From: Sphingopyxis sp.
GTDB taxonomy: Bacteria; Pseudomonadota; Alphaproteobacteria; Sphingomonadales; Sphingomonadaceae
Assembly: GCF_035250425.1 (NCBI RefSeq)
Contig: NZ_DATFFD010000011.1
Location: 5,990 to 69,989, forward strand
Reading direction: 5' to 3'
DNA length: 64,000 nt
Below, one piece after another: positions 4,684-31,921 of the stretch. The number at the start of each line of letters is the position of its first letter. Positions within the stretch are counted from its first letter, which is position 1. A model generated the notes under the pieces. That model was not told the DNA's origin, did no database searches, and saw only the letters and a list, made by a program, of their open reading frames with translations. Made by a program: the position numbers and the translations under genes.

Positions 4684-4696
4684 ATTGTAGGCCCAT
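4684..4696. promoter_or_regulatory. Module A operator (ATTGT-N3-ACAAT class)
   Basis: ATTGTAGGCCCAT, 11/13 match, between the divergent MDR and GntR genes. Confidence 0.55.
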
Positions 4697-4785
4697 GCGC
4701 TGTGATGGCCGTGAAGTGGGGCGGGGCTACCCGAATTTGCTTTGAAAGTGCCGTATTTACAGGGAATGCTTGGGGTGTCCGAATT

Positions 4786-5535
4786 ATGAAACTGTCTGAG
4801 GAAATGGACGAATTGGTCTACGGTAAGCCGAGCAAAATGTCCGACACGGCCGATGCAGGCGAGGAGAGAGTCGATTCTGCCAATCGTGTCGGATCGGTCG
4901 ACCAGATCGTCCTCGGGATCGTCCGCGGCGTCTACGAGGGACGCTTCGTCCCCGGGCAGAAGCTGATAGAGGGAGATCTGACGCGCCGTTTCAGTGTCGG
5001 ACGCGGCACCATACGCGAAGCGTTACGGCGACTCGAGGCCGAGGGTCTGGTGGTCGCAAGCCTGCACCGGGGGTTTCGCATCCGGCATTTCAGCCGTGAC
5101 GAGGTGCGCGACATCCTCGAGATCAACGCCACGATCATATCGTTGGCCGCCAGTCTCGCGGCGCAGCGGTTCGAACGGAGCCAGGATGTCAACGCACTGC
5201 GCGCTGTTGTTTCCAAAATGGCCCACTCCATCGGGGAAGGTAACGCGTTCGATCTTGCGAGCCTCCGGTTCGATTTTATGCGCGAACTCGTGAAGCTCAC
5301 GAAAAACAAGGAGTTGAGCCGCCACCTCCCGCGTTTCGATGCGACAATCATCCGTGCGCAGTTTCGCGCAACCTTCAGCGTCAAGAACGCCCACGCCGAT
5401 GTCGCCGCCTTCGACAGCATGGTGAGGTCGATCCTCGCGCGCGATGCGGAAGGCGCTGCGCAAATTGGGCGCGATTATGTCCGCTCCTGGTCGACCAGCA
5501 TACAGGAGTTGTCGGACGAACATTTCGCGCACTAG
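4786..5535 (+). CDS. GntR-family (FadR/FCD) transcriptional regulator
   Basis: wHTH PGQKLIEGDLTRRFSVGRGTIREALRRLEAEGLV plus an FCD-like C-terminus. Start re-set to ATG 4786 (could be a later ATG). Confidence 0.88.
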   Translation: MKLSEEMDELVYGKPSKMSDTADAGEERVDSANRVGSVDQIVLGIVRGVYEGRFVPGQKLIEGDLTRRFSVGRGTIREALRRLEAEGLVVASLHRGFRIRHFSRDEVRDILEINATIISLAASLAAQRFERSQDVNALRAVVSKMAHSIGEGNAFDLASLRFDFMRELVKLTKNKELSRHLPRFDATIIRAQFRATFSVKNAHADVAAFDSMVRSILARDAEGAAQIGRDYVRSWSTSIQELSDEHFAH

Positions 5536-5669
5536 TTCGCCCGGCTCTTCTCGATGCTGAGATCGCCGCCCCGCTATCGCGGCTTCTGTAAATCGCTCCG
5601 GCTTCTTCGCCGGTTGGGCGGCTACCGGATCGGTCTGGTGGCAGGGTGAAATAGCTTGTGGGTTTCCTG

Positions 5670-5682
5670 ATTGTCGGTCAAT
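5670..5682. promoter_or_regulatory. Module A operator
   Basis: ATTGTCGGTCAAT, 11/13, overlapping a -10-like TATAGC upstream of the FAH gene. Confidence 0.6.
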
Positions 5683-5748
5683 ATAGCATGACTAAATTCC
5701 GCATGGCCGGACGCTCCGCCACTGGTGCTGCTGGCGGGGAGTCAGGTT

Positions 5749-6714: not shown

Positions 6715-6731
6715 CGCGCCGGACTAGGTCG

Positions 6732-7640
6732 ATGTTCCCGAGACGATTGCTGCCAGCGACGAGCTTGCTCGCGGCTTTCGATGCCGTTGCGCGCCATTTG
6801 AGCTTCAGCGCAGCGGCCGACGAGCTGCAACTGACGCAGAGCGCGGTCAGCCGGCAGATCAAGGTCCTCGAGGATCAGCTGGGCTGTCTCCTGTTCGTGA
6901 GGGACCGCCGCAAGGTGATGCTGAGCGACGCGGGCGCAGCCTATCACCGAGAGGTTAAGCCGATCCTGGCAGCCCTGTTTCGAGCCACACTTGAAATCAC
7001 GACAAATCGCGCCGGCGGGTCGCTCGACTTGGCTATCCTGCCGACATTCGGAACGCGCTGGCTCGCGCCGCGCCTCGGCCACTTTCTTGCCGATAATCCC
7101 GGGGTCACGATCAATCTTTGTACACGGCTCAACGTCTTTGACTTTCATTTCGAGTCGATCGACGCCGCAATTCATTTCGGCCTGCCCGAATGGCCGGGCG
7201 CCGGGCTCGACTATCTAATGGGAGAACAGGTTATCCCGGTCTGTTCGCCCGCGCTGCGGCGCGAGGCAGGTTTCGCCGAGCCCGGCGACCTTCTGCGTGC
7301 GCCGCTCATTCATCTGGTGTCTCGCCCCCGTGCCTGGATGAACTGGTTCGGCTCGATGCAGGTCCGGGCCGGGCAGATCGACGGGCTGATGATCGACCAG
7401 TTCGCGACAGCTGCTCAGGCGGTTGCCGGGGGCGTCGGGGTGGCACTCATGCCGACCTTCCTGATTGCCGCGGAACTCGGGCGCGGGGAGCTGGTACCTG
7501 CAGTCGATGTCGAGCCGATCGCTGGCGAGGAAAGCTATTATCTTGCCTGGCCAAAAGCCCGGACCTCGCATCAGCCCCTGGCGGCATTCAGGGCTTGGCT
7601 CGTCGAGGAAGCTACGCGGTTCCGCAGCGGGGCGCCCTGA
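6732..7640 (+). CDS. LysR-family regulator (GcvA-like)
   Basis: FDAVARHLSFSAAADELQLTQSAVSRQIKVLE HTH; LPTFGTRWLAPRL. Confidence 0.92.
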   Translation: MFPRRLLPATSLLAAFDAVARHLSFSAAADELQLTQSAVSRQIKVLEDQLGCLLFVRDRRKVMLSDAGAAYHREVKPILAALFRATLEITTNRAGGSLDLAILPTFGTRWLAPRLGHFLADNPGVTINLCTRLNVFDFHFESIDAAIHFGLPEWPGAGLDYLMGEQVIPVCSPALRREAGFAEPGDLLRAPLIHLVSRPRAWMNWFGSMQVRAGQIDGLMIDQFATAAQAVAGGVGVALMPTFLIAAELGRGELVPAVDVEPIAGEESYYLAWPKARTSHQPLAAFRAWLVEEATRFRSGAP

Positions 7641-7740
7641 GCTGCGCGACACTTTGTTACGCCGACAGCATTTATCGCGCGTCCCGGCGACCTTCGGGAC
7701 GAACATAGGGGTTGCAATTGTTCCCCCTTTGCTAGACACA

Positions 7741-7771: not shown

Positions 7772-8554
7772 GTGAGCGAAGGACGCATTTCCGTGTCGTC
7801 GGCCGGCGGCGTGACGACGATCACTATCGACAATGCCGAGCGCATGAACGCGATATCGCTCGCCATGTGGCAGCAGCTAGGGGCCGCTGTCGCGCAGATC
7901 GACGCACAGACGCGATGCGTGGTCGTAACCGGGGCGGGTGGCCGGGCATTTGCATCGGGGGCCGATATTTCTGAGTTCAAGGCGCTTCGACGCCAGCCAG
8001 CGGCGCGCGAGGAATATGACAAGGCCGCTTATGAGGCGATGACCAGCCTCTATGCGCTGCCGCAACCCACGATCGCGCACATCTCGGGCTATTGTATCGG
8101 TGCTGGAATGGCGTTGGCGCTGTGCTGCGACGTCCGTCTTGCCACCGATCGCAGCCTGTTCGCAATTCCTGCGGGGCGTCTCGGGCTCGGCTACGGGCCC
8201 GCAGAGATCAAGCGTCTGATGGATGCCGTCGGCGTTGCGACAGCATCCGATATCCTTCTCAGCGCGCGGCGATACGACGCCGCCGAGGCGCTCGCAAAGG
8301 GACTCGTGACGCGGTTGTTCGCCGCAGATAAGATCGCCGAGGAGGCTGCCAGCTACGCCGCGTCCGTTGCGAAAAACGCTCCGATGACCATTCAGGCCGC
8401 CAAGCGCGTGATCAAGGAACTGGCCGTCACAAGTGACACGGCTGACATGGCGCTTTGCGAGGATCTCACCGATCGCTGCTTTGCAAGCGCAGACTATATC
8501 GAGGGCATCAATGCGTTTCTCGAGAAGCGCCAGCCCGATTTCAAAGGGGAATGA
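7772..8554 (+). CDS. Enoyl-CoA hydratase/isomerase family protein
   Basis: ERMNAISL, GRAFASGADISEF, GYCIGAGMALALCCD. GTG start at 7772 after GGAG. Confidence 0.88.
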   Translation: MSEGRISVSSAGGVTTITIDNAERMNAISLAMWQQLGAAVAQIDAQTRCVVVTGAGGRAFASGADISEFKALRRQPAAREEYDKAAYEAMTSLYALPQPTIAHISGYCIGAGMALALCCDVRLATDRSLFAIPAGRLGLGYGPAEIKRLMDAVGVATASDILLSARRYDAAEALAKGLVTRLFAADKIAEEAASYAASVAKNAPMTIQAAKRVIKELAVTSDTADMALCEDLTDRCFASADYIEGINAFLEKRQPDFKGE

Positions 8555-9732
8555 AGATGGGCGATCTGCCTCTGTCGCACCTCAAGGTCCTGGATCTTTC
8601 CCGGGTCCGCGCCGGTCCGACGTGCGTAAAGTTCTTCGGCGACTTCGGCGCGGATGTGATCAAGATCGAACGAACCGACGGGGAGGGCGACCCGATGGGG
8701 GACAATCGGCTTTCGTCGGATTATGTGAACGCGCAGCGCAACAAGCGCGGCATCACGCTGGATCTGAAGACGCCCGAGGGGGTAGAGGTCCTGAAGCGAC
8801 TAGTGAAGGATGCTGATATCCTCGTCGAGAATTTCCGTCCCGACGTGAAGTTTCGTCTCGGCATCGACTATGAATCGATGGCCGCCGTGAACGAGCGCCT
8901 CATTTACACCTCGATCTCGGCATTCGGCGAAAGCGGCCCATATCGTACAAGGCCGGGCTTCGATCTGATCGCCCAGGGAATGGGCGGGCTGATGTGGCTG
9001 ACCGGCTACCAGGATCGGGGGCCGCTTCGGGTGGGTATCTCGCCGGCCGACCTTTGCGCCGGTATCTTCGCGGCTATGGGGACGTTCGTCGCGCTTCAGG
9101 AGCGCGAGCGTTCGGGCAAGGGGCAATGGGTCCAGAGCAGCCTGCTGGCCTCGCAGATCATGATGCTCGACTATCAGGCGATGAGCTGGTTGATGGACAA
9201 GCGCATTCCGCTGCAACGCGGCAATGACCATCCGCAAATCGTGCCGACCGGCGTATATGAAGCGAGCGACGGCTATTTCACGCTCTCTACCGTGGGCAAT
9301 GACAGCTACCTGCGGCTTTGCAAAGCCATCGGCGCCCCCGAACTCGGCGCGGACCCGCGGTTTGTGGATGCTCCGACGCGCGAACGCAATCGCGACGAGA
9401 TGAACCATCTCATCAACCGGGCAACGCAGAAGAAGACGGCCGTCGAATGGGTCGAGATACTGAACGAAGCGGGTGTGCCGGCCGGACCGATCTACAAGCT
9501 CGACGAAATGTTCGATGATCCGCAGGTCAAGGAAACGGGGATCGTGCAGCCGCTCGATCATCCCGATCTCGGGACGGTCGAAATACTCGGCCAGCCGATC
9601 GGACTGAGCCGCACGCCGGCGCAATTCCTGCGGCCGCCGCCACGTCTCGGCGAGCACACCGACGAAGTTCTGACCGAAGCGGGCTTTGAAGCGCGAGAAA
9701 TTGCATCGCTTCGCGACAGGGGCGTGATCTGA
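8551..9732 (+). CDS. Family III (CaiB/BaiF) CoA-transferase
   Basis: LKVLDLSRVRAGP, GADVIKIE, RNKRGITLDLK, ADILVENFRP, GFDLIAQGMGGLM. ATGA overlap with the upstream gene (alternative start 8557). Confidence 0.9.
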   Translation: MKMGDLPLSHLKVLDLSRVRAGPTCVKFFGDFGADVIKIERTDGEGDPMGDNRLSSDYVNAQRNKRGITLDLKTPEGVEVLKRLVKDADILVENFRPDVKFRLGIDYESMAAVNERLIYTSISAFGESGPYRTRPGFDLIAQGMGGLMWLTGYQDRGPLRVGISPADLCAGIFAAMGTFVALQERERSGKGQWVQSSLLASQIMMLDYQAMSWLMDKRIPLQRGNDHPQIVPTGVYEASDGYFTLSTVGNDSYLRLCKAIGAPELGADPRFVDAPTRERNRDEMNHLINRATQKKTAVEWVEILNEAGVPAGPIYKLDEMFDDPQVKETGIVQPLDHPDLGTVEILGQPIGLSRTPAQFLRPPPRLGEHTDEVLTEAGFEAREIASLRDRGVI

Positions 9733-9775
9733 AGGATCGGACGCGGGAAAAGACGCGGCGAATAGGAGAGAGGTA

Positions 9776-10975
9776 ATGACGGATGTTCCACTTTATGATG
9801 TGGATCTTTTTACAAAGGAAAATCTCGACAACCCCTTTCCGCATTATGACGCGATCCGCGAGCTTGGTCCGGTGGTGCGGCTGCGAGCGCCCAATCCCGA
9901 CGTCCTCGTGCTCAGCCGCTTTCGCGACGTCACCCGCGCGCTTCAGTCACCGGCAGCGCTGATTTCCGGGAAGGGCACCGGGTTCAACGCCTTTATCAAC
10001 CAGGAAGTCGCGGAGCCCGGCGTTCTGGCGTCCGACGGAGCCCGCCATCGCAAGATGCGCATGCCGCTCATGAAATATCTTGCGCCGCCGGTCCTCGCCT
10101 CCATCCGTCCCGACCTCGATGCGAAAGCCGATGTCAAGCTTGCCGCCCTTGCAGATGGAAGCACGCGCGAGGCGATTTCCGAGATCGCCAGTCTTCTGCC
10201 GGTGGATGTCATTTCCGAACTCGTGGGGTTGCCCGAGGGGGACCGCAAGAAGATGCTGAAATGGGCATCTTCGAGCTTCAATGTGCTTGGCCCTATCGAC
10301 CGTGACGGCGAGCCGATCCCCGAACTCATCGACGATCTGGCAACCGCCGGCGAGGTGATCCGATATCTGAAGACCTTTGATCCGGCCTCGCTGCGACCCG
10401 GTTCATGGGCCGCGGAGCTTTTCGAGCAAGTGCAGACCGGCGGCATGACGGTCGGCGATGCGCGCGTCAGCCTTCGGGCCTTCGTCCTTCCGAGCCTCGA
10501 TACGACAATCAACGCCGCCGGCAATCTGCTTTATCTCCTCGGGACCAACCCCGACCAGTACCAGCGCCTTCGCGCCGAGCCGGAGCTGATCCCGAGCGCG
10601 GTGCTCGAGGCGATGCGCCACACCACGATCGTCCGCTGGTTCTCGCGCGTCGCCGTCGAGGACTATCGCGCCGACGATGTCTTCATTCCTGCCGGCGAAC
10701 GCGTGATGCTGCTGTTCGGGGCCGCAAACCGGGATCCCAGCAAATATCAGGATCCGGAACGCTTCGACGTAGCGCGTAATCCGGCAGACCAGCTCGGATG
10801 GAGTGCGGGTCCGCATATTTGCGCCGGAAAGCATTTGGCGAAGATGGAAATGGAGGCGCTATTGAAAGCGCTTGTCAAGCATGCCGCCGCGATCGAGGTG
10901 GATGCGCCGACGCCGCTTTCCAATCGCGGCGTTATTGGCATTCGCTCGATGCCGATCCGGCTGCTTCCGGCCTGA
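9776..10975 (+). CDS. Cytochrome P450 (reminiscent of CYP199/aryl-ether O-dealkylase types)
   Basis: I-helix PSLDTT, ExxR (EAMR), AANRDP, heme-Cys motif GWSAGPHICAG. Confidence 0.9.
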   Translation: MTDVPLYDVDLFTKENLDNPFPHYDAIRELGPVVRLRAPNPDVLVLSRFRDVTRALQSPAALISGKGTGFNAFINQEVAEPGVLASDGARHRKMRMPLMKYLAPPVLASIRPDLDAKADVKLAALADGSTREAISEIASLLPVDVISELVGLPEGDRKKMLKWASSSFNVLGPIDRDGEPIPELIDDLATAGEVIRYLKTFDPASLRPGSWAAELFEQVQTGGMTVGDARVSLRAFVLPSLDTTINAAGNLLYLLGTNPDQYQRLRAEPELIPSAVLEAMRHTTIVRWFSRVAVEDYRADDVFIPAGERVMLLFGAANRDPSKYQDPERFDVARNPADQLGWSAGPHICAGKHLAKMEMEALLKALVKHAAAIEVDAPTPLSNRGVIGIRSMPIRLLPA

Positions 10976-10979
10976 CGCC

Positions 10980-11783
10980 ATGGAACCGTCGAAGCGCTTT
11001 GGGGTGAAGGCGGGCCGCGTCGCCGGCAAGCTTGCCCTCGTAACCGGTGCAGGGCAGGGGATCGGCGCCTGCACTGCGCGCCTGCTCGCCTCCGAAGGGG
11101 CGAAGATCCTGCTCACCGATCGCAACGAGGATGCCGTTCAGGAGCGCGCAGGAGAGATCAACGCCGAGTTCGGGCCCGGCGTTGCCTTCGCCGCCCGCCA
11201 GGATGTAACGCAAGAAGAGGACTGGGCTACGGCGATTCAGGCCGCAAGCGAGATGATGGGCGGACTGTCGGTGTTGGTGAATAATGCAGGCATCGTCCTG
11301 ACGGGCAGTGTCGAGGATTTCAGCCTTGAGGAATGGCGTCACGGTATGGCGGTCAATACCGACAGCGTCTTTCTTGGCTGCAAAATTGCGCTGCCCTTGC
11401 TGCGAGAAGGCCAGCCTGCATCGATCATCAATATTTCTTCGATCGCCGGGCTGATCGCATCGGCGACCTTCGCGAATTACAATGCCTCGAAGGCTGCCGT
11501 ATGGCTCCTCAGCAAGTCCGTCGCCCTGCATTGCGCGCGAAACGGCTGGGACATCCGCTGCAACTCGGTACACCCGAGCTTCATCCAGACGCCGATCCTC
11601 GACGACCTGGTCGGAGACAAGGAGCGCGATGTGGTCCTGGCCAAGCTTGCGCGTCAGGTTCCGCTTGGCCGTCTCGGCGAGGCGGAGGAGGTGGCCAGCG
11701 CAATCCTTTATCTGGCCTCGGATGAATCGCGTTTCATGACGGCCTCAGAAATGAAGCTCGACGGCGGAATTTCCGCAATGTGA
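10980..11783 (+). CDS. Short-chain dehydrogenase/reductase
   Basis: TGAGQGIG, VNNAG, YNASK. Start re-set to MEPSK at 10980. Confidence 0.9.
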   Translation: MEPSKRFGVKAGRVAGKLALVTGAGQGIGACTARLLASEGAKILLTDRNEDAVQERAGEINAEFGPGVAFAARQDVTQEEDWATAIQAASEMMGGLSVLVNNAGIVLTGSVEDFSLEEWRHGMAVNTDSVFLGCKIALPLLREGQPASIINISSIAGLIASATFANYNASKAAVWLLSKSVALHCARNGWDIRCNSVHPSFIQTPILDDLVGDKERDVVLAKLARQVPLGRLGEAEEVASAILYLASDESRFMTASEMKLDGGISAM

Positions 11784-11790
11784 CCAGCTC

Positions 11791-12426
11791 TCAGCCGGGC
11801 AAGGCGGCCAGCGTCGCGGCTTCGAATTCCAGGGTCCTGCGAATGCACTCCCGCGCGCCAAGGCGCTCGAAAAAGGCGCTGCACCGGGGGTGTTCGTCGA
11901 TGCCGATCCCCAGCTGTACCATTCGCCGCAGGCACCAGAAAAGATAGATGTCTGCGATCGAAAAGCGATCGAAGAGCCATTGGCGCCCGGCCAGCATGTC
12001 TTCGGCGATGTCGGAGAATTCCTGGAGGCGAGCAACCGCACGCTCACGGACGGCTGCCTCGGCCGCTTCGAGGTCGCAGAAATGCCTTGGCACCTGGTAC
12101 GCCGAAAGCGGCGGGTGCACGCCCGAGGCGAACCAGGCCATCAGCGAAATGCTGCGATACCGGTCAAATCCGGACGGCAAAAGTGCCGCGTCGGCAAACT
12201 GATCGGCGATCCATTCGAGAATGGCCACATTTTCGGTAAGCCGATCCTCTCCGATAGCGAGTACGGGCACGGCATGCTTGCGTGTGATGCTAAGAAACGC
12301 GTCGCCATGCTGTTCGCGCTTGCGAAGGTTGACGACCTCCACGTCGAATTCGACGTTCGCCTCGATCAGCGCCGCGAACGGCACGAGCGCGCAGGTGTTG
12401 GGGAAATAATAGAGCTTGATGTTCAT
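11791..12426 (-). CDS. Glutathione S-transferase (beta-class-like)
   Basis: KLYYFPNTCALVP, VPVL, LTENVAILEWIAD, FSIADIYLF. Confidence 0.88.
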   Translation of the reverse strand: MNIKLYYFPNTCALVPFAALIEANVEFDVEVVNLRKREQHGDAFLSITRKHAVPVLAIGEDRLTENVAILEWIADQFADAALLPSGFDRYRSISLMAWFASGVHPPLSAYQVPRHFCDLEAAEAAVRERAVARLQEFSDIAEDMLAGRQWLFDRFSIADIYLFWCLRRMVQLGIGIDEHPRCSAFFERLGARECIRRTLEFEAATLAALPG

Positions 12427-12450
12427 ATACTCTCTTCCCGCATCGGTTCC

Positions 12451-14181
12451 TCAGGCCAGCGACAGGACATGCCGTACGGCATCGGTGAGACCGGCTACGG
12501 CATCGGGAGGCAGATCCGTCGATCGCCACGCCACCCAGCGGTCGGGACGCACCAGCAGCGCGCCATGATCGCTCACTTCGCGCACCGCGGCCCATTCGCC
12601 GGTCAGATCGTCGAATTCGCACCCCTTGCCAATGGTGCGAACGGTGAGCGGCACGCCGGTCTCGCGAGTGACCGCTTCGGCTGCCTCGGCCCAAGCTTTT
12701 CCTCCCAGGCCGACGAGAAGGCAGAAACTGCCCTTGCCCACGATGTCGAGTGTCGACACCTCCGCTGCGCCGTGCTGGACCCACGCGTGGGGAAGGTAGG
12801 CGCCTGGAAAGCTGGTCGGTTCATAATATAGTTCCGGGTCGCGCGACGGAGAAGGCATCGGAAGCCCGTCATCGTGAATTGCGCTGGATCGGTAACGCTG
12901 CCCCAGTTCCATGCCGATCGCATTCGAACGATAGTTGCCGAGCGCGATGGCCGCGTCGAGTTTTGCGCGTCGTTCGGCCGCTTCCGCCGTGTCCGAGAAC
13001 AAGGTTTCCAGCTTCTGCCATGCTTCGTTCTCGGGCATCTCGTCCGTCCAGCCCACGGCGGCGGGAATCGGGGCGTTATTCGCCATGCTCTTGTTCGCGC
13101 GCTCCACGAGGTGGCGGCCGACCGGCTGGCGTTCGTCATGATAGGTGTCGAGAAGCGCCTCGCCCGCATACCCTTTGAGAACATGGGCGAGCTTCCAGGC
13201 GAGATTGAACGCGTCCTGCACCGAGGTATTGGCGCCGAGGCCGCCTGCGGGGGGATGCCGGTGCGCCGCGTCGCCGGCGAGGAAAATGCGTCCCTTGCGA
13301 TATTGGCGGGCGTAGATGTGATTGACGCGCCAGTCGTAAATCTGGTTGATCTTGATCGCTACGTCGGGGTCGCCGATCGTTTCGCGCGCCCGCTTAAGAA
13401 GCTCTGCCTCGCCGACGTCCGCCGTGCCGGCCATTGAGAAGAGCCACTCGCTGTAGGGCGTTACGCAAAGCCAGCTGCCTGCGCCGTACCATTGATGGGG
13501 GCCGGGCCGGAAGATATTGTAGAGATAGGCGGGCCGGTGGGCGGCATATTTGGCTAGATCCGCCTCGACCCACATGCTGACGAGACCTTTTTCAGTCGGT
13601 GCTCCTTCCATTTCGAAACCGCACTGCTCCGCGACAGTGGAGCGCCCACCATCGGCACCGATCGCGAAGGCGGCCTCGATCCGATATTCTTCGCCTGTCT
13701 CGCGGTTTCTGATCGCCGCGACCACCCCGTCGGTATGCTGTTCGATGCTGAGCATCTCGTTGGAATATCGGATATCCGCGCCCTTGGACTTGGCTCCAGC
13801 AAGGAGGACCGGTTCGAGCCTGTGCTGCGCAATATTCCACCCGACGCACGGCGATGCGGCGGCATAATCGGATAGCCGCGCGGCCGAGGTGCCGTAGCTT
13901 CGATAGCGCGCGAACTCCATTCCATCCATCGAGGTCGCAAACACGTTGAATGGCAGCGACCGCATCGAGACCCCCTGCGTCTTCATCTCATCCTCGATGC
14001 CAAGGTCGCGGTAGACTTCCATGCTCCGGGCGTTGGCGACGGTCGCGCGGGGGGTCGGAGCGCACGCGCCATATTTTGAAATGCCGATGACCGCGATGCC
14101 GTATCCCGCCAGCAAGGCTGACGCCGCCAATCCGCTCGGTCCAGCGCCGACGACGAGTACCCCGCATTTTTCAGTGCGCAT
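12451..14181 (-). CDS. FAD-dependent phenol monooxygenase (TfdB/HbpA/PheA family), copy 1
   Basis: GAGPSG, IGADGGRS, LAGDAAHRHPPAGGLGANTSVQDAFNLAWKL, C-terminal LVRPD domain. Start re-set to 14181 (RBS GGGAG). Confidence 0.9.
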   Translation of the reverse strand: MRTEKCGVLVVGAGPSGLAASALLAGYGIAVIGISKYGACAPTPRATVANARSMEVYRDLGIEDEMKTQGVSMRSLPFNVFATSMDGMEFARYRSYGTSAARLSDYAAASPCVGWNIAQHRLEPVLLAGAKSKGADIRYSNEMLSIEQHTDGVVAAIRNRETGEEYRIEAAFAIGADGGRSTVAEQCGFEMEGAPTEKGLVSMWVEADLAKYAAHRPAYLYNIFRPGPHQWYGAGSWLCVTPYSEWLFSMAGTADVGEAELLKRARETIGDPDVAIKINQIYDWRVNHIYARQYRKGRIFLAGDAAHRHPPAGGLGANTSVQDAFNLAWKLAHVLKGYAGEALLDTYHDERQPVGRHLVERANKSMANNAPIPAAVGWTDEMPENEAWQKLETLFSDTAEAAERRAKLDAAIALGNYRSNAIGMELGQRYRSSAIHDDGLPMPSPSRDPELYYEPTSFPGAYLPHAWVQHGAAEVSTLDIVGKGSFCLLVGLGGKAWAEAAEAVTRETGVPLTVRTIGKGCEFDDLTGEWAAVREVSDHGALLVRPDRWVAWRSTDLPPDAVAGLTDAVRHVLSLA

Positions 14182-14228
14182 CGGTTTAATCTCCCAAGTT
14201 CGTATCACCATCCCATATCTTCCAAGAG

Positions 14229-14241
14229 ATTGTAGGACAAT
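14229..14241. promoter_or_regulatory. Module A operator (perfect)
   Basis: ATTGTAGGACAAT, 48 bp upstream of monooxygenase 1. Confidence 0.75.
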
Positions 14242-15280: not shown

Positions 15281-15394
15281 TGGCTGTCTCTCCCTTGGCC
15301 GCGACCTCGTTTCTGGTGCGCTGGCTGTCAAACATTGGCCCGGAGCTGTTGCCCGAGCGTTATGGGCATATTAGGCCGACGATGCTATTGCAAG

Positions 15395-15407
15395 ATTGTA
15401 GGACAGT
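15395..15407. promoter_or_regulatory. Module A operator
   Basis: ATTGTAGGACAGT, 12/13, between the divergent FAH and hydrolase genes. Confidence 0.7.
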
Positions 15408-15508
15408 GTTGTAACATAAAATGGCTATCAAGGCAGGCGGAGCGAACGCGATCCGGTGCCGGCGCATTGATGAAACGGCGGGTTAACCGCTTGGTCACGG
15501 GGAAAGAG

Positions 15509-17320: not shown

Positions 17321-17333
17321 ACTGTCCTACAAT
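17321..17333. promoter_or_regulatory. Module A operator
   Basis: ACTGTCCTACAAT, 12/13, upstream of monooxygenase 2. Confidence 0.7.
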
Positions 17334-19528: not shown

Positions 19529-19636
19529 CCTGAGTTAGTTCATCGGGGCCGCCGCCCGCACGACATCGGTTGCGCTTGCCAGAGTTCGGGCGGCGTACAA
19601 CCGGGACTGGCGCGGCCTCGCAACGGGAGAGAGGCG

Positions 19637-22391: not shown

Positions 22392-22394
22392 GGC

Positions 22395-23216
22395 TTGCTG
22401 TTGAGGCAGGGCACCACAACCAGCTCGGATGGCACGTCCATCGCGTTTGTCGAGACCGGCGAGCCCTCGCGGCCGCCGATCATTTTCATTCACGGCTATC
22501 TTTTTTCGACGGACGCATTTGAGCGACAGATCGAATCGAGCCTGGGAAGTTCGTTCCGATTGGTTGCTCTCGATCTCCGCGGTCACGGAAACTCTGGCAA
22601 GCCCGAGGCCTCGAGCGCTTATCAGGATGCGTCGCTTTGGGCTGACGACGTGGAAGTCGTCCTGAACGAGCTCGATATAGAAAGGGCGCTTCTTGTCGGA
22701 TGGTCGCTGGGATCGCGCGTCGCGCTTAACTATGCCTGGTGCAAGGGGTTCGAGCGCATTGCCGGTATGAACCTGGTGGCCGCGACGCTAGCGACGACGG
22801 CTCATGACGCTAGTGGCGGTCTGACCCAAGATCTCAGGAATCTTCTGTCTCTCTCCAAGCCTGAAAGGGAGGACGCAACCCGCTATTTTCTAAAATTATG
22901 CGGTGCGCCGACGCTCGACCTTGCGGCGGAAGAGCATTTTCTCGATATGGCGATGCGGGTGCCCCCGACTGCGCGCTTAGGCGCCCGCTCCTGGATGCTG
23001 CCTTATGACGACACGCTGAGCTGGGTGACGGTCCCGACGATGATCACCCACGGCGAAAGCGACCCCGTTGTCGCCGAAGCCCTGTCTCGATCGCACGTAG
23101 CCGCAATTCCAGGCGCGCGCCTCGATATCACTCCCGACGCCGGGCATCTGGCGTTTTTCCAGAATCCTGAGGTCTTTAATCAACGACTCCGATCTTTCGC
23201 CCGCGAAGTTTTCTAA
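22395..23216 (+). CDS. Alpha/beta hydrolase (arylesterase/non-heme haloperoxidase-like)
   Basis: IIFIHG, DLRGHGNS, GWSLG, HGESD, AGHLAF. TTG start is uncertain. Confidence 0.82.
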   Translation: MLLRQGTTTSSDGTSIAFVETGEPSRPPIIFIHGYLFSTDAFERQIESSLGSSFRLVALDLRGHGNSGKPEASSAYQDASLWADDVEVVLNELDIERALLVGWSLGSRVALNYAWCKGFERIAGMNLVAATLATTAHDASGGLTQDLRNLLSLSKPEREDATRYFLKLCGAPTLDLAAEEHFLDMAMRVPPTARLGARSWMLPYDDTLSWVTVPTMITHGESDPVVAEALSRSHVAAIPGARLDITPDAGHLAFFQNPEVFNQRLRSFAREVF

Positions 23217-23329
23217 CTCAAAATCGTCATACATTTCAGTCTTGCAATTTCGCCGGAATGATGACAGCCTTCGCTTGGGAAAATCGAAAAAATCGCCCGT
23301 TAGCGGCGATCGAACCACGGGAGAGGAAG

Positions 23330-25829: not shown

Positions 25830-26954
25830 TTATTGTATGATAAATCCTCCCGCTGCCGAGAATGCCCGGAATTCCTGATCGGTCAATCCTGCCTTCGCTT
25901 TGGCGCGCAGGGCCGCCATGGCATGTTCGTGGCCGCCGGGCGTATTCATTGTCATGAACTTGTGATCGATGTCTGGCGCTGGCGGTCCGAAGGCATGTGT
26001 GCAATTGCGCGGGGCAAAAGCCAATGCGCCGCGCTCGAGGATGACGTCGGCCGTTCCGCACGTCATCGCGAGCTGGCCATCGAGAATGAAGAACATCTCC
26101 TCCTCGGTGGGCTGATAATGCTTCGGTGCGGGCGGAATTCGCGATACGAAATTGAGCATCGCCGTACCGCCGCTTTCGTCACCTCCGAGAACGCGTTTGC
26201 GAAAACCCGGGTCGGGTCCGTCGAGGGCGACTTCGCTCTCTGGGGTGTGCACCAGCCGCGGGACCGCGCGGCGCTCGAACAGCTTTTCGCGAAGAGCTTC
26301 GAGATCGCCCTCGCCGCTGAACTCGAACTCGACCGGAGGCATTTCGCTATTCGTCAAGCTATCGTTTTCGAGCAATGCATCGTCGAACCGGAAGCCGTAG
26401 CGCGAAAGGACCGCCCGATACGGCGTGAAGTCATTTTCTTTTTTGTGCGCCCAAAGCTCATGCGCGTCCGCGAAGGCGCGCTCGAGTCCGGCGGATTGAT
26501 AGACGAGGTTCACCCAGACCGGCGCGTCGGACGTATTGCGGATGCTGAACCGCGTGCGGGGAGGGGCGTATGCGAGGGTGAAGCGGGCGGCGGTTTCGAC
26601 AAGGCTACCAACGCCGATCTCGGGCGTACCCTCGACGACAATCAGAAATGTCTCCCGATCATCGTGATAGTGCGGCGGCAGTCCTGCGCCAGGAGCGATC
26701 ACGATGCTGTGAACGCTGAGCCGGCCCGCGCTCTGTTCCCCGCGCAGATAGGTACGGATGTCGAAGCCTAGCCATGACTGGTCGATCCCGTCTTCACGGC
26801 TGGCACAGACGACCGGGCAGGCTTCGGTTTCGGCCCACCGGTTCCGGAGGCGCTCGAGATCCAGCGGCGAAGCGACCGACCATTCGATGGGGGGTCGCGG
26901 TTCGGTGATGAGGGCATTCACCCTGAGATTGTCGGCTTCATTGGCCTGAGGCAT
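25830..26954 (-). CDS. Bicupin protein (quercetin 2,3-dioxygenase-like)
   Basis: Two cupin motifs: LPPHYHDDRETFLIVVEG and PKHYQPTEEEMFFILDG...PRNCTHAF; QueD-like YLRGEQSAG and TPGGHE segments. Confidence 0.75.
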   Translation of the reverse strand: MPQANEADNLRVNALITEPRPPIEWSVASPLDLERLRNRWAETEACPVVCASREDGIDQSWLGFDIRTYLRGEQSAGRLSVHSIVIAPGAGLPPHYHDDRETFLIVVEGTPEIGVGSLVETAARFTLAYAPPRTRFSIRNTSDAPVWVNLVYQSAGLERAFADAHELWAHKKENDFTPYRAVLSRYGFRFDDALLENDSLTNSEMPPVEFEFSGEGDLEALREKLFERRAVPRLVHTPESEVALDGPDPGFRKRVLGGDESGGTAMLNFVSRIPPAPKHYQPTEEEMFFILDGQLAMTCGTADVILERGALAFAPRNCTHAFGPPAPDIDHKFMTMNTPGGHEHAMAALRAKAKAGLTDQEFRAFSAAGGFIIQ

Positions 26955-26965
26955 GTCATCTCTCC

Positions 26966-27023: not shown

Positions 27024-28334
27024 TCACCTGCCGAAATTGACAGGGCGAGGCCATAGCCCCTTCGCCGCCTGGCTGCGTGCATCAGCGAGGCTTAGCACGT
27101 CGGCAAAGCCTCCCGTACGCGCAGCATCGGTGCTGTTGTGGCGCTCTATTTCGAGGCGCCCGAGCTGGTTTCTGTGAACTTCGTCTGGCCCGTCCGCGAG
27201 CCGCAACAGACGTGCCGTTGCGAATGCCGCAGTTAGGAAATGATCGTTGTTCGTTCCGCCCCCGCCGAACAGTTGCATGGCCCAGTCTATGACTTGCTGC
27301 GCCATGCGCGGGGCGGCGATCTTGATCATTGCGATTTCGCGACGCGCCGCCTTGTTGCCGTCGGAATCCATCATGCACGCCGCCTTCATCGTAAGCAGGC
27401 GGCACTGCTCGATCATGATGCGGGCTTCGGCGATTCGCTCGAGCGTGACAGTCTGTTCGGACAGAGGGCGACCGAACGGTTCGCGCATCGTGGCCCGGCG
27501 GCACATGCGTTCGAGGATGCGCTCTGCCAGTCCGATGAGGCGCATACAGTGGTGAATACGGCCAGGGCCAAGGCGGCCTTGGGCAATTTCGAAACCCCGT
27601 CCCTCGCCGAGTAGCATATTGCTGGCGGGAACGCGCACATCATCGAAAACGACTTCGGCCGCCCGGTCAGGCACTCCGTAAAAGCCGAAGACGGGAAGGG
27701 CGCGGATGACTTCAACTCCGGTGGTCGCACGCGGCACGAGGATCATCGACTGCCGCCTGTACGGGTCGGTTTCGTCTCCGCCGTTCTTGCCCATCACGAT
27801 CATGATTTCGCAGCGCGGATGGGTTGCGTTGGTAGTGTACCATTTCCGCCCGTTGATCACATAGTCATCGCCATCGCGCACGATCGAGCAGCTTATGTTG
27901 GTGGCGTCCGATGAAGCTTGGTCTGGCTCCGTCATAGCGAAAGCGGATCGGATTTCGCCACGGAGCAATGGCTCAAGCCATCGGGCTTTTTGCGCGTCGG
28001 TGCCGTAGCGGAGAATGGTTTCCATATTCCCGGTATCGGGGGCGGAACAGTTAAAGATCTCGGGTGCGAACAGGCTGCGTCCCATGATTTCGCAGAGTGG
28101 CGCATAGTCGGCATTGGACAGTCCGTCAGGGCATTCACTCGCAGGCAAAAACAGGTTCCACAAGCCCGCGGCACGTGCGAGCTGCTTAGTTTCCTCGACG
28201 ACCGGATAAACGGCCCAAGGGCCGAGACGCTCGGCCTCGAGATAATAGCGGCGCTCTTGCGGATAGATGTGCGCTGCCATGAAATCCTCAAGCAGCGTCG
28301 CGGTCACCGTCGCATCGTGGCGAGTCCGATTCAT
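27024..28334 (-). CDS. Acyl-CoA dehydrogenase (ACAD10/11 C-terminal, LvaC-like)
   Basis: [61 protein letters not shown]. Confidence 0.9.
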
Positions 28335-28358
28335 AACTTCTCTCCCCGAGTCTTGTTA

Positions 28359-28371
28359 AATGTCCTACAAT
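28359..28371. promoter_or_regulatory. Module A operator
   Basis: AATGTCCTACAAT, 12/13, between the divergent ACAD and phosphotransferase genes. Confidence 0.7.
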
Positions 28372-28424
28372 CTGTAATGACAATCTGCAAGCGTGACGGG
28401 ACAGTCGCCGATCAGGGAAGAGGA

Positions 28425-29552
28425 ATGGGCGCCATGGCAGAAGGCATCGATACACCGGCGTACGGCGAACTTGACGCTGCGGCACCGGAAACGAGCCAGC
28501 GGCCCGAAACGACATCCGTCGCTCTGTCACAGGAGGCAAGCCAGTGGCTTGCCGCTAATGTGGAAGGTTTTGCGGGACGGGGACGCGTTGCCAAATTCGG
28601 ATTTGGGCAATCCAATCCGACCTTCCGTCTCGATGGCGATAGCGGTTCTTTCGTGCTGCGGCGCAAGCCCCCCGGCGTGCTCCTCCCGGGGGCTCATGCG
28701 ATCGAGAGGGAGTTTCGCGTCCTCCAGGCGATTGCAGACACCGTCGTTCCGGCCCCGCGCGTATTTGCCTTATGCGAGGACGATAGACTGCTGGGCGCGC
28801 CTTTTTACGTCATGGAACTGGTCGAAGGTCGGCTTTTCTACGACCAGCGCATGCCGGGTGTCGAACCAGAAGCCCGGCGTGCATTGTTCGAGGCGATGTG
28901 CCGTGCTGTCGCAAGCCTCCATTCGGTTGATCCCGCCGGGGTCGGGCTTGCGGACTACGGTCGCGCCGAGGGGTTTCTGGGCCGGCAGGTCGCGCTCTGG
29001 ACGCGGCAATATCGCGCCAGCGAAACAAGGCGGATTCCGGCCATGGAGCAACTCATCGACTGGCTGCCCCGCAACCTGCCTGAGGATCAGGCGGCGCGCA
29101 TCTTCCACGGGGATTTGAGGCTCGATAACATGATCTTCCATCCGAGCGAGCCGCGAGTGACTGCGCTGCTCGACTGGGAACTTTCGACGCTGGGAGACCC
29201 GTTGGCGGACTTCGCCTACCATAGCATCGCCTGGTGGATCGAAGCCGACTTGTTCCGCGGTTTCGCGGATCTTGACCGGGTGGCGATGGGCATTCCCGAA
29301 TGGCCCGATTATCTGCAACTCTATCTCGACCTGTCGGGCAGGACCGACCGGCCCGACTGGGACTTTTATCTGGCGTTCGCATTTTTTCGTATCGCCGCGA
29401 TCCTCCAGGGCGTCCGCCGCCGCGCCGAAACCGGTCAGGCGAGCAGCGCTGATGCCGCTCACGTCGGTGCCAAAGCCGAACCCCTTGCGAAGCTCGGCTG
29501 GGCGATCGCCGTGGCTGGCCATGGGGCGACCGCCCCGGGAGGCCGTTCATGA
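28425..29552 (+). CDS. APH-family phosphotransferase (ACAD10/11 N-terminal, LvaA-like)
   Basis: FGFGQSNPTF, VLRRKPPG.LLPGAHAIEREF, HGDLRLDN, LDWELSTLGDPLAD. Start 28425 or 28434. Confidence 0.88.
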   Translation: MGAMAEGIDTPAYGELDAAAPETSQRPETTSVALSQEASQWLAANVEGFAGRGRVAKFGFGQSNPTFRLDGDSGSFVLRRKPPGVLLPGAHAIEREFRVLQAIADTVVPAPRVFALCEDDRLLGAPFYVMELVEGRLFYDQRMPGVEPEARRALFEAMCRAVASLHSVDPAGVGLADYGRAEGFLGRQVALWTRQYRASETRRIPAMEQLIDWLPRNLPEDQAARIFHGDLRLDNMIFHPSEPRVTALLDWELSTLGDPLADFAYHSIAWWIEADLFRGFADLDRVAMGIPEWPDYLQLYLDLSGRTDRPDWDFYLAFAFFRIAAILQGVRRRAETGQASSADAAHVGAKAEPLAKLGWAIAVAGHGATAPGGRS

Positions 29553-30907
29553 CAGGCGTGAGCGATAATTCACTTGGCGGCGCCCAGGCAGGCGCCGCGC
29601 GTGGAGCGCGGCCTAGGCTGACCGGCGGACAGGTCTATCTTCTTGGTCTGTTGATGGTCATCAACATGTTCAACATGCTCGATCGCTATGTGATCAACAT
29701 CGTCGCCGAACCGATCAAGCGCGAACTGGCGCTTAGTGATGCGCAAATCGGTATCATGACCGGAATCGGTTTTGCGCTCACCTATGCGATTGCCGGAGTC
29801 GCGGTGGCGCGGCTCGCCGACCGCATGAACCGACCATGGTTGATCGCGGGGAGCGTCACTATCTGGTCCGCCTTCACGGGATTGAGTTCGGCAGCTCAGT
29901 CATTCGCACAGCTTCTGATCTGCCGCTTTGGCGTGGCGTTCGGCGAAGCCGGTTGTACGCCGGCAGCTCATGCCCTGATCGTAGACTCGGTTCCGCGCGA
30001 GTCGCGCGCATCGGCGATCGCCATATATTCGATCGGTGCGCCGCTCGGCCTGCTGCTGGGCATGGGCGTTGGCGGTCTCGTGGCGCAGGCCTATGGGTGG
30101 CGGATGGCGTTTGTCGTCGCAGCCGTGCCCGGTGTCGTGCTTGCGCTTCTGGCCGCGCTGACGATCCGCGAGCCGCGCGTGCGCTCGTCCCGCATTCCGG
30201 CGGATCGTGTCTCGCTCAAGGAAGCCCTCGGGATGGTGCGCGTGAAGCGAACCTATTGGTTTGCGTGTGCGGGATATGGCTGCGTCCTCATGGTATCGTT
30301 CGGGCTGTCCGCTTTTTCTGCGCCCTATTTTCTGCGCAACCATGAGGCGGAGATCGGAGTGCTCGCTGCAACGATCGGTTCGCATTTCGGGGTCGCGATG
30401 AAGCCGCTGGGCTTTCTTGGCATCGCGCTCGGCCTGACATATGGCCTTTCGGGCGCATTCGGTACCTGGTTGGGCGGCTATGTGAGCGATGCGCTCGGCC
30501 GCGTTGACATGCGGCGTGCGTTGTGGCCCAACATAGTCGGCAATCTGCTGGCCGCCGGCTTTTTTGTCGCCGGCTTTACCGCAGACTCGGTTGTTGTCGC
30601 ACTCATCCTGCTGACGATCGGGCAGATCGCGCTCGCGTCATCCGCAGCGCCCTTCTTTGCGACGATCCAAGGGATAACCCCCGCTCCGATCCGCGCCACA
30701 TCGGCTGCGATCGCTCTCTTGGTGATCAATCTCATGGGAAGCATGGGGCCGCTGGTAGTCGGCATGGCTTCGGATTTGGCGAGCGTGCGTCAAGGCGAGG
30801 GAGGGGGCGTTCGCACCGGCCTCTATTGCGTCATTGCGATGTCTGCCATGGCCGCCTGGCTTTTCTATCTGTCGTCGCGAACGGTGACGCGCGACGCCGA
30901 ATTTTGA
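29549..30907 (+). CDS. MFS transporter (spinster-like)
   Basis: About 12 hydrophobic segments, DRYVINIVAEPIKREL.LSDAQIG, GEAGCTPAAHALI. ATGA overlap. Confidence 0.9.
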   Translation: MTGVSDNSLGGAQAGAARGARPRLTGGQVYLLGLLMVINMFNMLDRYVINIVAEPIKRELALSDAQIGIMTGIGFALTYAIAGVAVARLADRMNRPWLIAGSVTIWSAFTGLSSAAQSFAQLLICRFGVAFGEAGCTPAAHALIVDSVPRESRASAIAIYSIGAPLGLLLGMGVGGLVAQAYGWRMAFVVAAVPGVVLALLAALTIREPRVRSSRIPADRVSLKEALGMVRVKRTYWFACAGYGCVLMVSFGLSAFSAPYFLRNHEAEIGVLAATIGSHFGVAMKPLGFLGIALGLTYGLSGAFGTWLGGYVSDALGRVDMRRALWPNIVGNLLAAGFFVAGFTADSVVVALILLTIGQIALASSAAPFFATIQGITPAPIRATSAAIALLVINLMGSMGPLVVGMASDLASVRQGEGGGVRTGLYCVIAMSAMAAWLFYLSSRTVTRDAEF

Positions 30908-31010
30908 TCGCAATCGCGCATAGCCGGGAGACCGTTCGCGATCGACGGCCTTTCGCTCTGGGATCGTCCTTCGCAAATGAGCGCCCGCGCATCCGCGCGG
31001 CTCGCCGCGT

Positions 31011-31736
31011 TTAGGGTTCGGGTGCGAACGCACGATCGGGCAAGGCGGACACGCGCGCGCGCGTAAAATCAACATGGCGCCGTCCGGCAGCTTCGGCGGC
31101 AAGCTCGTCTCCCGAAAGAATGGCTTCGGTGAGCTGAATGAAGTCTCCGGGCTGCTCGGAGTCCGCCGCGCGGCCGAACGTTCTGAGCTGCACCCGCATG
31201 ATGTGGGTGTGCGCATCGGGGAAAAGGCTGCGCAATTCCTGATTTTGCGACATGCGCACGATGAAGCGGTAGTAATTCTCGCGAACCCGCAGAAAATCGG
31301 GAAAGCTGCCGCCGCTGCTTTCGGGCGTCAGGTGCGCCTGGAGGTCCTTGAACGACTGGCGATCTTCGGGGCTCTTGAGGTTTCGGGCCGCGCCCCTGGC
31401 TGCAAGCCCGAGCATCACTTCGACAACGTCGAGAAGGTCGCCGACTTCCTGGCGCGTCAATTGTCTTACGACTGCTCCCCGGTTGGGAATGATCGTGACC
31501 ACGCCGGTAGAAGCCAGGCGATGGAGAACTTCGCGAATAGTGCCGCGGCCGACCCCGAAGCGATGCATCAGGTCCGGGGCGATAAGGCGCTGACCGGGTA
31601 CCAGGCTACCCTCGTAAAGACCTCGCAAAATACCTCGATAGGCCCGCTCGAACGGAGTGAGGGGCGGGGCGGCTTTCGGGTTCGCATCCCCTTCGCCGTT
31701 CGTATCAGAATGTCTCTGCCGATCTTCCAAATTCAT
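31011..31736 (-). CDS. GntR-family regulator, paralogue of 4786-5535
   Basis: PGQRLIAPDLMHRFGVGRGTIREVLHRL. The ORF-track extension to 32903 is antisense to the ACAD gene. Confidence 0.87.
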   Translation of the reverse strand: MNLEDRQRHSDTNGEGDANPKAAPPLTPFERAYRGILRGLYEGSLVPGQRLIAPDLMHRFGVGRGTIREVLHRLASTGVVTIIPNRGAVVRQLTRQEVGDLLDVVEVMLGLAARGAARNLKSPEDRQSFKDLQAHLTPESSGGSFPDFLRVRENYYRFIVRMSQNQELRSLFPDAHTHIMRVQLRTFGRAADSEQPGDFIQLTEAILSGDELAAEAAGRRHVDFTRARVSALPDRAFAPEP

Positions 31737-31908
31737 AGCTTCGTCCCGGACCGCTCCAGCGCGCACGGGCGGTCCAGTGCAGGTCCCCCGCCACCTGTGC
31801 ATATTTCCACATAGTTGCCCGGCGGCGATAACTGCTGAGGCCCGCTGCGCAACGTTTTTCTGGCTAGCAGCATTGCGCGCGATTGACCATGCCATGCAAT
31901 CATGCAAA

Positions 31909-31921
31909 ATAGTAGGACGAT
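31909..31921. promoter_or_regulatory. Module A operator
   Basis: ATAGTAGGACGAT, 11/13, between GntR2 and the beta-oxidation operon. Confidence 0.55.

Follow-up and report, generated by a model that had tools for sequence, protein, structure and literature searches.

A conserved 13-bp palindrome as the probable operator of FadR-subfamily GntR repressors in a catabolic gene cluster of Sphingopyxis

Operators of the FadR subfamily of GntR regulators have been described as A/T-rich palindromes with TKGT and ACMA boxes (TKGT-N3-ACMA), in which GT and AC stand 3 nt, sometimes 2 nt, apart; the 3-nt spacing is found for DgoR, FadR, GlcC, LldR, PdhR and others (PMC4494728). The supplement of Suvorova et al. 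gives GlcC, GudR and DgoR sites of the general type TTGTC[CG][GT]ACAA, such as TTGTCCGACAA (GlcC), TTGTCGGACAA (GudR) and TTGTTCTACAA (DgoR) (PMC4494728). Here we describe a 64-kb stretch of Sphingopyxis sp. DNA (contig NZ_DATFFD010000011.1; hereafter the window) in which a 13-bp palindrome, ATTGTAGGACAAT, recurs ahead of nearly all transcription units of a catabolic cluster of roughly 36 kb; the source is a sphingomonad of soil or rhizosphere. The cluster encodes two regulators, GntR#1 and GntR#2, each with a GntR winged helix-turn-helix (wHTH) and an FCD domain. From the analyses below, the palindrome is probably the operator of these cluster-encoded FadR-subfamily repressors.

In E. coli, the IR1 repeat of the FCD regulator DgoR, ATTGTAGTACAAC, agrees with the consensus from the window in 11 of 13 positions (PMC11705089). 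DgoR also resembles the model proposed here in having inverted repeats over the promoter, release by a carboxylate of the pathway, and autoregulation (PMC11705089). DgoR, however, serves one sugar-acid operon through two adjacent repeats, whereas the window has about 10 single sites, about 14 transcription units and two paralogues, and we found no close sequence relationship of GntR#1 or GntR#2 to DgoR. E. coli FadR is similar: it is a GntR wHTH protein that regulates beta-oxidation genes, and its dimer recognises a GT-N3-AC palindrome centred on CC[GT] (TGGTCCGACCA). Its effector domain is FadR_C, whereas GntR#1 and GntR#2 have FCD, and it carries Arg35 and reads TGGT, whereas the regulators here have Gly or Pro and are predicted to read TTGT or TCGT. 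An acyl-CoA effector for GntR#1 and GntR#2 is no more than a guess.

A third comparison is with FCD regulators of aromatic-acid catabolism such as VanR and Atu1419 (6Z74) of Agrobacterium fabrum. Atu1419 is an FCD-type repressor that serves a plant-phenolic cluster in a rhizosphere alphaproteobacterium, and its operator is likewise a short palindrome. In the PDB it is remotely related to GntR#1 (E = 2e-7), with low sequence similarity, and the spacing of its palindrome, ATGTATACAT, differs from that of the window motif. Atu1419 is tetrameric (PMC11705089). Given the fit of the window motif to TKGT-N3-ACMA, to DgoR IR1, and to the GlcC, GudR and DgoR sites, the operator class is well known. Compared with the local FCD regulons of the kind described by Suvorova et al., the regulon in the window is unusually large. 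The part of their supplement that was covered contains no entry with this exact operator or with orthologues of GntR#1 or GntR#2, and a literature search for the motif string returned only primer matches.

At a threshold of two mismatches, ATTGTAGGACAAT occurs nine times in the window. Every copy is intergenic, although intergenic DNA makes up only 10.5% of the window, and none falls in the 57 kb of coding DNA, as mapped from third-position GC bias, Pfam matches and the gene calls of related contigs. All nine copies are confined to 4.6-32 kb, with no copy at this threshold from 32 to 64 kb. Two are perfect (14229 and 26966), four have one mismatch (7741, 15395, 17321 and 28359), and three have two (4684, 5670 and 31909). 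Shuffling the whole window gave an expected 0.44 copies, and dinucleotide shuffling of the intergenic segments alone gave 0.07, with a maximum of 2; exact ATTGT-N3-ACAAT, present twice in the window (14229 and 26966), never appeared in shuffles. An earlier, sequence-only reading of this DNA had reported these copies as perfect, 12/13 and 11/13 matches in intergenic DNA upstream of genes. Its coordinates and sequences were correct, the intergenic placement held for all nine, and the motif is not equally frequent in coding DNA.

The same reading had treated the centre of the palindrome as a free N3, but this proved not to be so, since the triplet is CCT/AGG in eight of the nine copies. In the CCT orientation G4, C6 and C10 are invariant over the nine sites and T5 is present in eight. 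The window consensus is thus ATTGT-CCT-ACAAT, an A/T-rich 13-bp palindrome with GT-N3-AC that fits the FadR-subfamily operator definition. An unbiased count of intergenic 8-mers returned sub-words of the motif as its top four, and all six window copies of GTAGGACA are intergenic. The 30-nt flanks of the sites are unrelated (mean identity 28%), which indicates that the motif is not part of a larger repeat element. A weight matrix trained independently, on sites from other genomes and loci only, gave 10 window hits at 14 bits or more, 9 of them intergenic, compared to 0.59 in shuffles.

We list below the copies in the window, with the matrix score where it bears on the call; lower-scoring members are discussed after the list.

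4626..4638: predicted operator ATGGTATGACAAA, between ADH (minus strand) and GntR#1 (plus strand); weak match at a conserved position, GT..AC core intact, 12.4 bits
4684..4696: doubtful copy ATTGTAGGCCCAT; two mismatches, AC core broken, not conserved in L006, 8.5 bits
5670..5682: predicted operator ATTGTCGGTCAAT, 67 nt upstream of FAH1 (ATG 5749); 14.2 bits
7741..7753: predicted operator ATTGTCCTACAAG, 19 nt upstream of ECH (GTG 7772)
14229..14241: predicted perfect operator, 18 nt (or 48 nt) upstream of FAD ring hydroxylase 1; 21.6 bits
15395..15407: predicted operator ATTGTAGGACAGT, in the middle of the 228-bp divergent region between FAH2 and the alpha/beta-hydrolase-SDR unit
17321..17333: predicted operator ACTGTCCTACAAT, 43 nt upstream of FAD ring hydroxylase 2 (GTG 17376)
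23223..23235: predicted operator ATCGTCATACATT, upstream of the TonB-dependent receptor; GT..AC core kept, 16 bits
26966..26978: predicted perfect operator ATTGTCCTACAAT, 12 nt upstream of the bicupin ATG (26954), abutting the Shine-Dalgarno sequence
28359..28371: predicted operator AATGTCCTACAAT, between ACAD (minus strand) and APH-family kinase-MFS (plus strand)
31909..31921: predicted operator ATAGTAGGACGAT (also written ATCGTCCTACTAT), 20 nt upstream of FadE (ATG 31941) and 173 nt upstream of GntR#2

Copies with three mismatches occur at background level (2 intergenic and 5 coding; 0.88 expected), so mismatch counting alone gives no support to 4626 and 23223, which the sequence-only reading had included as weak copies. 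These two nevertheless score 12.4 and 16 bits with the matrix and are conserved in contigs L006 and L093, respectively; both are credible sites, 4626 with more modest backing. In particular, 4626 aligns with a near-perfect site in L006, ATTGTCGGACAAT at 1297, within the conserved block TTTGCAA-N-ATGAAAT.GT..GACAA. The copy at 4684 fared worse, because its core is broken, its L006 counterpart is missing, and its score lies inside the noise; as a site it is doubtful.

Within 4.5-32 kb, every intergenic region able to hold a promoter has a site, except for two short gaps (9733-9775 and 19529-19636) that are probably intra-operon. The two convergent gaps of the cluster have none. The distance from site to start codon is 12-115 nt, and both orientations with respect to the downstream genes occur. 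The placement at 15395 is like that of single sites serving two operons, which sit in the middle of the divergent region (PMC4494728). Additional half-sites (TTGT/ACAA) within 35 nt of the sites were unconvincing, at 1.3 per 100 nt vs 0.84 in intergenic DNA generally.

Conservation was assessed in contigs with orthologues of GntR#1 (L003, 62% identity; L006, 75%; L007, 49%) or of GntR#2 (L093, 69%; L002, 67%; L095, L096 and L001), viewed with flanks of 10 kb on either side, compared to the 64 kb of the window. These contigs carry subsets of the same genes in differing order, and the motif is present at the orthologous promoters. It is conserved at seven to eight of these promoters, and in alignments it stands out as a conserved island in otherwise diverged DNA. 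The sites are as follows.

GntR#1 promoter: window 4626; L006 1297
FAH1 promoter: window 5670; L007, two sites, 8846 and 8859
ECH/CoA-transferase promoter: window 7741; L003 17618 and L007 12482
FAH and hydrolase, divergent region: window 15395; L003, two sites, 13914 and 14036
TonB receptor promoter: window 23223; L093 13347, AATGTCCGACAAT, upstream of the orthologous receptor
Bicupin promoter: window 26966; L093 8740, CTTGTAGGACAAT, at the same position
APH and ACAD, divergent promoter region: window 28359; L096, two sites in otherwise diverged DNA
FadE promoter: window 31909; L093 7596 (identical sequence), L003 9477, L095 8861 and L096 10549

A contig profile search with an alignment of the two GntRs found two loci only, both with GntR#2 orthologues. 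Neither had an AGG-type site at two or fewer mismatches, and a looser pattern returned ATCGTCATACGAT-type sites there.

We also searched metagenome contigs with the GntR#1-clade alignment, and this yielded 80 loci (535 kb) whose homologues are 26-44% identical and share the helix GV[SG]RG[STP][VI]REA. The motif occurs 47 times in this DNA at two or fewer mismatches. Such a site lies within 400 nt upstream of the HTH at 24 of 79 loci, compared to 2 of 184 control windows (Fisher p = 3e-12); after de-duplication, 15 of 61 loci retain one (p = 2e-8). The CCT centre faced one way relative to the regulator gene in 11 de-duplicated cases and the other way in 4, a bias that is not significant. The attribution to the FadR/GntR operator type, already made in the sequence-only reading, is supported by the fit to TKGT-N3-ACMA, by the GntR and FCD domains of both regulators, and by enrichment upstream of distant homologues. 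What was observed directly is the motif itself, with its statistics, placement and conservation, and its association with regulators of this type. At loci L051, L056, L058, L062 and L063, GntR/FCD homologues with a GVGRGTVREA helix have ATTGTCATACAAA or ATTGTAAGACAAT adjoining the regulator gene, and L051 and L062 are labelled human-gut, from which we deduce that the operator type reaches well beyond Proteobacteria-like soil organisms.

Both GntR#1 and GntR#2 match PF00392 and PF07729 above the gathering scores. They are 33% identical, and the recognition stretch VGRGTIRE is common to both. The GntR#1 clade is rare, with 38 matches at E<=1e-20 among 5.8 billion proteins. Orthologues of GntR#2 are common in Sphingomonadales, with the nearest named relatives in Sphingomonas, Novosphingobium, Sphingobium and Croceicoccus (among them Sphingomonas sp. 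Root710, Sphingobium lactosutens and Croceicoccus bisphenolivorans, for which complete assemblies exist), and they always adjoin a FadE-type beta-oxidation operon, the same operon being present in L093, L095 and L096. Our search of the PDB and the literature found no characterised close homologue of either protein and no relevant sphingomonad GntR. The best PDB matches of both are 3IHU (an unpublished structural-genomics entry), 7XP0 and 9ISW, joined by Atu1419 6Z74 for GntR#1 and McbR 4P9F for GntR#2.

In canonical FCD domains of the DgoR, LldR and TM0439 type, an Asp and three His chelate a divalent metal in the effector pocket. In contrast to DgoR, whose FCD holds such a metal, a sequence alignment of 23 GntR#1-clade proteins contains no His that is invariant within the FCD domain; the residues invariant there are R128, R161, N174, R190 and Q192. 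The GntR#1-clade domain may be a variant that lacks the usual metal site, and metal-independent binding of a carboxylate or CoA-thioester would be a reasonable guess.

In the model that we propose, each ATYGT-CCT-ACRAT site would be occupied by a GntR dimer, whose two monomers would contact one half-site each. From 3.4 to 38 kb, about 13-14 transcription units would have such a site on or just 3' of their -10/+1 region, where the dimer would keep RNA polymerase out. Release would follow when an intermediate of the pathway, in all probability a carboxylate or acyl-CoA, bound the FCD domain. A site upstream of each GntR gene would provide negative autoregulation.

The promoter geometry is consistent with such a mechanism. 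At FadE, an alignment of five genomes shows a -35 element (TTGAC[CT] or TTGCTT), a spacer of 16-17 nt, and a -10 element CMAAAT, and the operator starts inside the last 2 nt of this conserved -10. At bicupin, a TATAYA box conserved between the window and L093 lies 7 nt upstream of the operator. Since the operator would thus cover -10/+1 at both promoters, as judged from consensus elements, we favour repression, with autoregulation of both GntR genes. Upstream of ECH, TTGCA[AT] is conserved about 30 nt before the 7741 site, and a promoter scan at 17321 returned TTGTCT-16-TACAAT, with the motif itself taken as the -10. A TTGCAA hexamer is present 0-30 nt from several operators (4613-4618, 7716-7721, 15388-15393 and 23242-23247) and may be a local -35 element; the copies at 7716 and 4613 are kept in the alignments with L003 and L006. 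Two rhizosphere metatranscriptome contigs stop beside operators, one at 26965, on the side of 26966 that faces bicupin, the other at 14223, 6 nt from 14229 towards the gene, at 3-6x and with possible DNA carry-over.

Several points weigh against this model. Binding, repression, the effector and the division of sites between the paralogues are all steps that we infer. The promoter elements are consensus guesses, and no convincing -35 could be placed at 14229, 28359 or 7741. The metatranscriptome runs, X25-X27, are too sparse for mapping of starts (about 1-6x, short contigs, possible DNA carry-over). The GT..AC core is broken at two sites, 5670 and 4684. Finally, one strong matrix hit is coding, TGTGTCCGACAAT at 21252-21264 in the Rieske/VanA-like gene; it is the only such hit and scores 14.7 bits, with about 0.6 expected by chance.

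The sequence-only reading had also proposed that one or both GntRs coordinate the cluster as one inducible pathway. Conservation of the motif at orthologous promoters in contigs with either regulator supports its link to this type of regulator, but the two paralogues probably divide the sites between them instead of being interchangeable. By hand alignment to E. coli FadR, GntR#1 has Gly at the residue equivalent to the DNA-contacting Arg35 of FadR, where its orthologues have Ser or Gly; GntR#2 and the L001 and L002 orthologues have Pro there, and the L093 orthologue has His. Suvorova et al. reported a correlated HTH position (their position 28) for the same nucleotide, the K of TKGT (PMC4494728), which our hand alignment equates with Arg35. 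We tallied half-sites at loci with a clear upstream site, picked with N at motif positions 3 and 11. Regulators with Pro had 9 C and 1 T half-sites, and those with other residues had 8 C and 33 T (Fisher p = 7e-5), a count that is open to the objection that the half-sites are not phylogenetically independent. The FadE operators beside GntR#2 orthologues (window, L093, L095 and L096) each contain at least one ATCGT/ACGAT half-site, which is also present in the L002 site upstream of a GntR#2 orthologue. A residue of the wing, which is His throughout the GntR#1 clade but Asn in GntR#2, was considered as the determinant of ATTGT vs ATCGT and was ruled out by the ATTGT sites of the Asn-wing homologues L042 and L046.

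From the half-site pattern and the FadE operators, we predict a division of sites. GntR#2, with Pro, would prefer ATCGT/ACGAT and act mainly at its own gene, the FadE operon (31909) and perhaps the TonB receptor (23223). GntR#1, with Gly, would prefer ATTGT/ACAAT and act at the oxygenase, FAH, bicupin, kinase/ACAD and CoA-transferase units. On these sequence grounds, GntR#2 is the probable regulator of the beta-oxidation operon, and most of the other units would fall to GntR#1. This split is nevertheless a weak part of the model. Only one FadE operator, that of L003, lies beside a GntR#1 orthologue (it reads TTTGT...ACCTT), and L093, which has a GntR#2 orthologue with His and no GntR#1 orthologue in the fetched 16 kb (8 kb on either side), has T-type sites at bicupin and the receptor.

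An alternative is an arrangement in which only one GntR binds all the sites and the other paralogue reads something else or is redundant. We consider this doubtful but worth weighing. The recognition stretches of GntR#1 and GntR#2 are identical; L093 and L096, with GntR#2 orthologues, have both T-type and C-type sites and no GntR#1 orthologue in the fetched flanks; and GntR#2 orthologues are widespread, the GntR#1 clade rare. However, GntR#1 orthologues have near-perfect upstream sites of their own (L006 1297; L003; L007), a site lies upstream of both GntR genes in the window, and the correlation of Pro or non-Pro with C or T half-sites suggests diverged preferences.

Beyond the predicted division of sites, we tentatively entertain a joint reading of the whole cluster as one possibility. 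A single HTH residue would act as a switch, Gly or Ser for ATTGT and Pro for ATCGT, and would wire a generic beta-oxidation operon, under GntR#2 as the Sphingomonadales FadR analogue, to strain-variable enzymes of the ring-hydroxylating, ring-cleaving and 4-hydroxyacyl-CoA type under GntR#1. Together these would form a single regulon, about 36 kb long, for a plant phenolic with an aliphatic side chain, in which FCD domains without the usual metal site sense an acyl-CoA or carboxylate.

Another alternative, which we regard as unlikely, is that the GntR proteins act as activators or dual regulators at some promoters. Candidates are 5670, 15395 and 4626, where the larger distance from the start codon (67-115 nt) would suit such a role, and E. 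coli FadR activates fabA and fabB. At the promoters inferred from conservation (FadE and bicupin), however, the site lies over -10/+1, and the majority of FCD regulators in catabolic clusters are repressors (PMC4494728, PMC11705089).

Binding of the motif by the LysR-type protein (6732-7640) or the TetR protein (38085-38774) is very improbable. Their genes do lie in or beside the cluster, and orthologues of both recur in L003. However, the motif is present in L006, L007, L093 and L096, which have no LysR or TetR in the fetched flanks, and it follows GntR homologues over 80 unrelated metagenome loci. A LysR box is a T-N11-A dyad of about 15 bp, usually in the region divergent from lysR; the 13-bp GT-N3-AC palindrome differs from this and does not fit the LysR-site definition. 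The lysR gene itself runs in the same direction as FAH1, 17 nt behind it.

That the motif is no regulator site at all, being instead an alternative-sigma promoter element, a short dispersed repeat or an RNA hairpin, is hardly credible: its TACAAT resembles a -10 hexamer and was used so by the scan at 17321, but the motif is palindromic, stands in both orientations relative to downstream genes among unrelated flanks (28% identity), precedes GntR homologues in many phyla, and has a 5-bp stem and 3-nt loop too weak for a terminator.

Repression by the cluster-encoded GntR proteins, as proposed here, would add no mechanism to those already described for FadR-type GntR repressors. The motif is useful chiefly for marking out a catabolic pathway that is still uncharacterised, since it defines, from sequence alone, which of the roughly 35 genes between 3.4 and 38 kb belong together. 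The earlier reading gave an extent of 28 kb, but the operon of FadE, SDR, thiolase, ECH and 3-hydroxyacyl-CoA dehydrogenase behind the 31909 site extends the regulon to about 38 kb. The same signature, with shuffled gene order, occurs in other Sphingomonadales from soil, rhizosphere and plant metagenomes, where it can be used to trace the pathway and to pick candidate genes for the substrate. Once the effector is identified, the regulators and operator could serve as a small-molecule-inducible switch.

The genes and units of the cluster, in a window of 61% G+C, are as follows.

1753-3138/3405, minus strand: HGLS-family gene (Pfam)
3363-4523, minus strand: Zn-ADH (Pfam), the leftmost unit served by the 4626 operator
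4786..5535, plus strand: GntR#1, GntR wHTH and FCD, 249 aa (PF00392 and PF07729); start codon as in the called gene of L010
5749-7640, plus strand: FAH1-LysR unit, behind the 5670 site
7772-11783, plus strand: ECH, family III CoA-transferase, P450 and SDR unit (Pfam), behind the 7741 site
11791-14211, minus strand: FAD ring hydroxylase 1-GST unit, behind the 14229 site
14312-15280, minus strand: FAH2
15509-17148, plus strand: alpha/beta-hydrolase-SDR unit
17376-23216, plus strand: FAD ring hydroxylase 2, a 136-aa protein, Zn-ADH, Rieske/VanA-like oxygenase, cupin and alpha/beta hydrolase
23258/23330-25486, plus strand: TonB-dependent receptor
25830-26954, minus strand: bicupin gene
27024-28334, minus strand: ACAD
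28425-30907, plus strand: APH-family kinase-MFS unit
31011..31736, minus strand: GntR#2, GntR wHTH and FCD, 241 aa (PF00392 and PF07729)
31941..37998, plus strand: operon of FadE-type ACAD, SDR, thiolase, ECH and 3-hydroxyacyl-CoA dehydrogenase (Pfam), behind the 31909 operator
38085-38774: TetR gene, flanking the beta-oxidation operon

Ten cluster enzymes were compared with NCBIfam, and none reached a curated equivalog cut-off. Cluster DNA is present in rhizosphere, soil and plant metagenomes; a megablast of 25 kb of the window against a plasmid collection returned no related record. A flavonoid/isoflavone (fde/ifc) identity was considered for the cluster and is left as speculation, since the likeness is partial only (FAD monooxygenase, alpha/beta hydrolase, small cupins) and no FdeC-type glyoxalase dioxygenase is present here.

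At the left end, regulon membership of the HGLS gene is uncertain because a site-free gap of 224 nt divides it from ADH. Its linkage to the cluster is kept in L003, L007 and L010. This gene, of the 2-oxoadipate dioxygenase/decarboxylase family, is thus cluster-linked in four genomes (window 1753-3405; L003 18973-20744; L007 15732-20085; L010 2207-6522). In the relatives, it is followed by an oxidase of about 980 aa with FAD_binding_4, FAD-oxidase_C and Fer4_8 domains; in the window, two unannotated ORFs (320-715 and 806-1642) lie 3' of HGLS at the place of this oxidase.

L010 and L011 come from a strain whose GntR#1 is 99.6% identical. They are collinear with the window between HGLS and SDR, and divergence starts inside the GST gene. 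In L010 this gene (15175-15549; window 11791-12426) is truncated to 124 aa and is followed by ADH, an unknown gene and TetR. The point of divergence places the hydroxylase/FAH part of the window at a strain-variable junction. In run X26, a contig with a word depth of 23.6 connects 15309 directly with 20890 and leaves out the 5580 nt that lead from FAH2 into the Rieske gene; with only 21 nt on the short side, the join may be a chimera or a variant arrangement.

Further along, the APH-family kinase divergent from ACAD (window 27024-29552) forms a pair that is kept in Croceicoccus bisphenolivorans (L096 2981-5476). The pair may resemble LvaA/LvaC, which phosphorylate 4-hydroxyacyl-CoA and carry out the elimination in levulinate catabolism. 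Downstream of the cluster, at 39502-43984, an ORF of 1226 aa has only a C-terminal Peptidase_M1 domain and shares 77 nt with the start of an ABC-transporter ATPase gene. Beyond this region lie two more TonB-dependent receptors, at 44165-46303 and 49739-52243.

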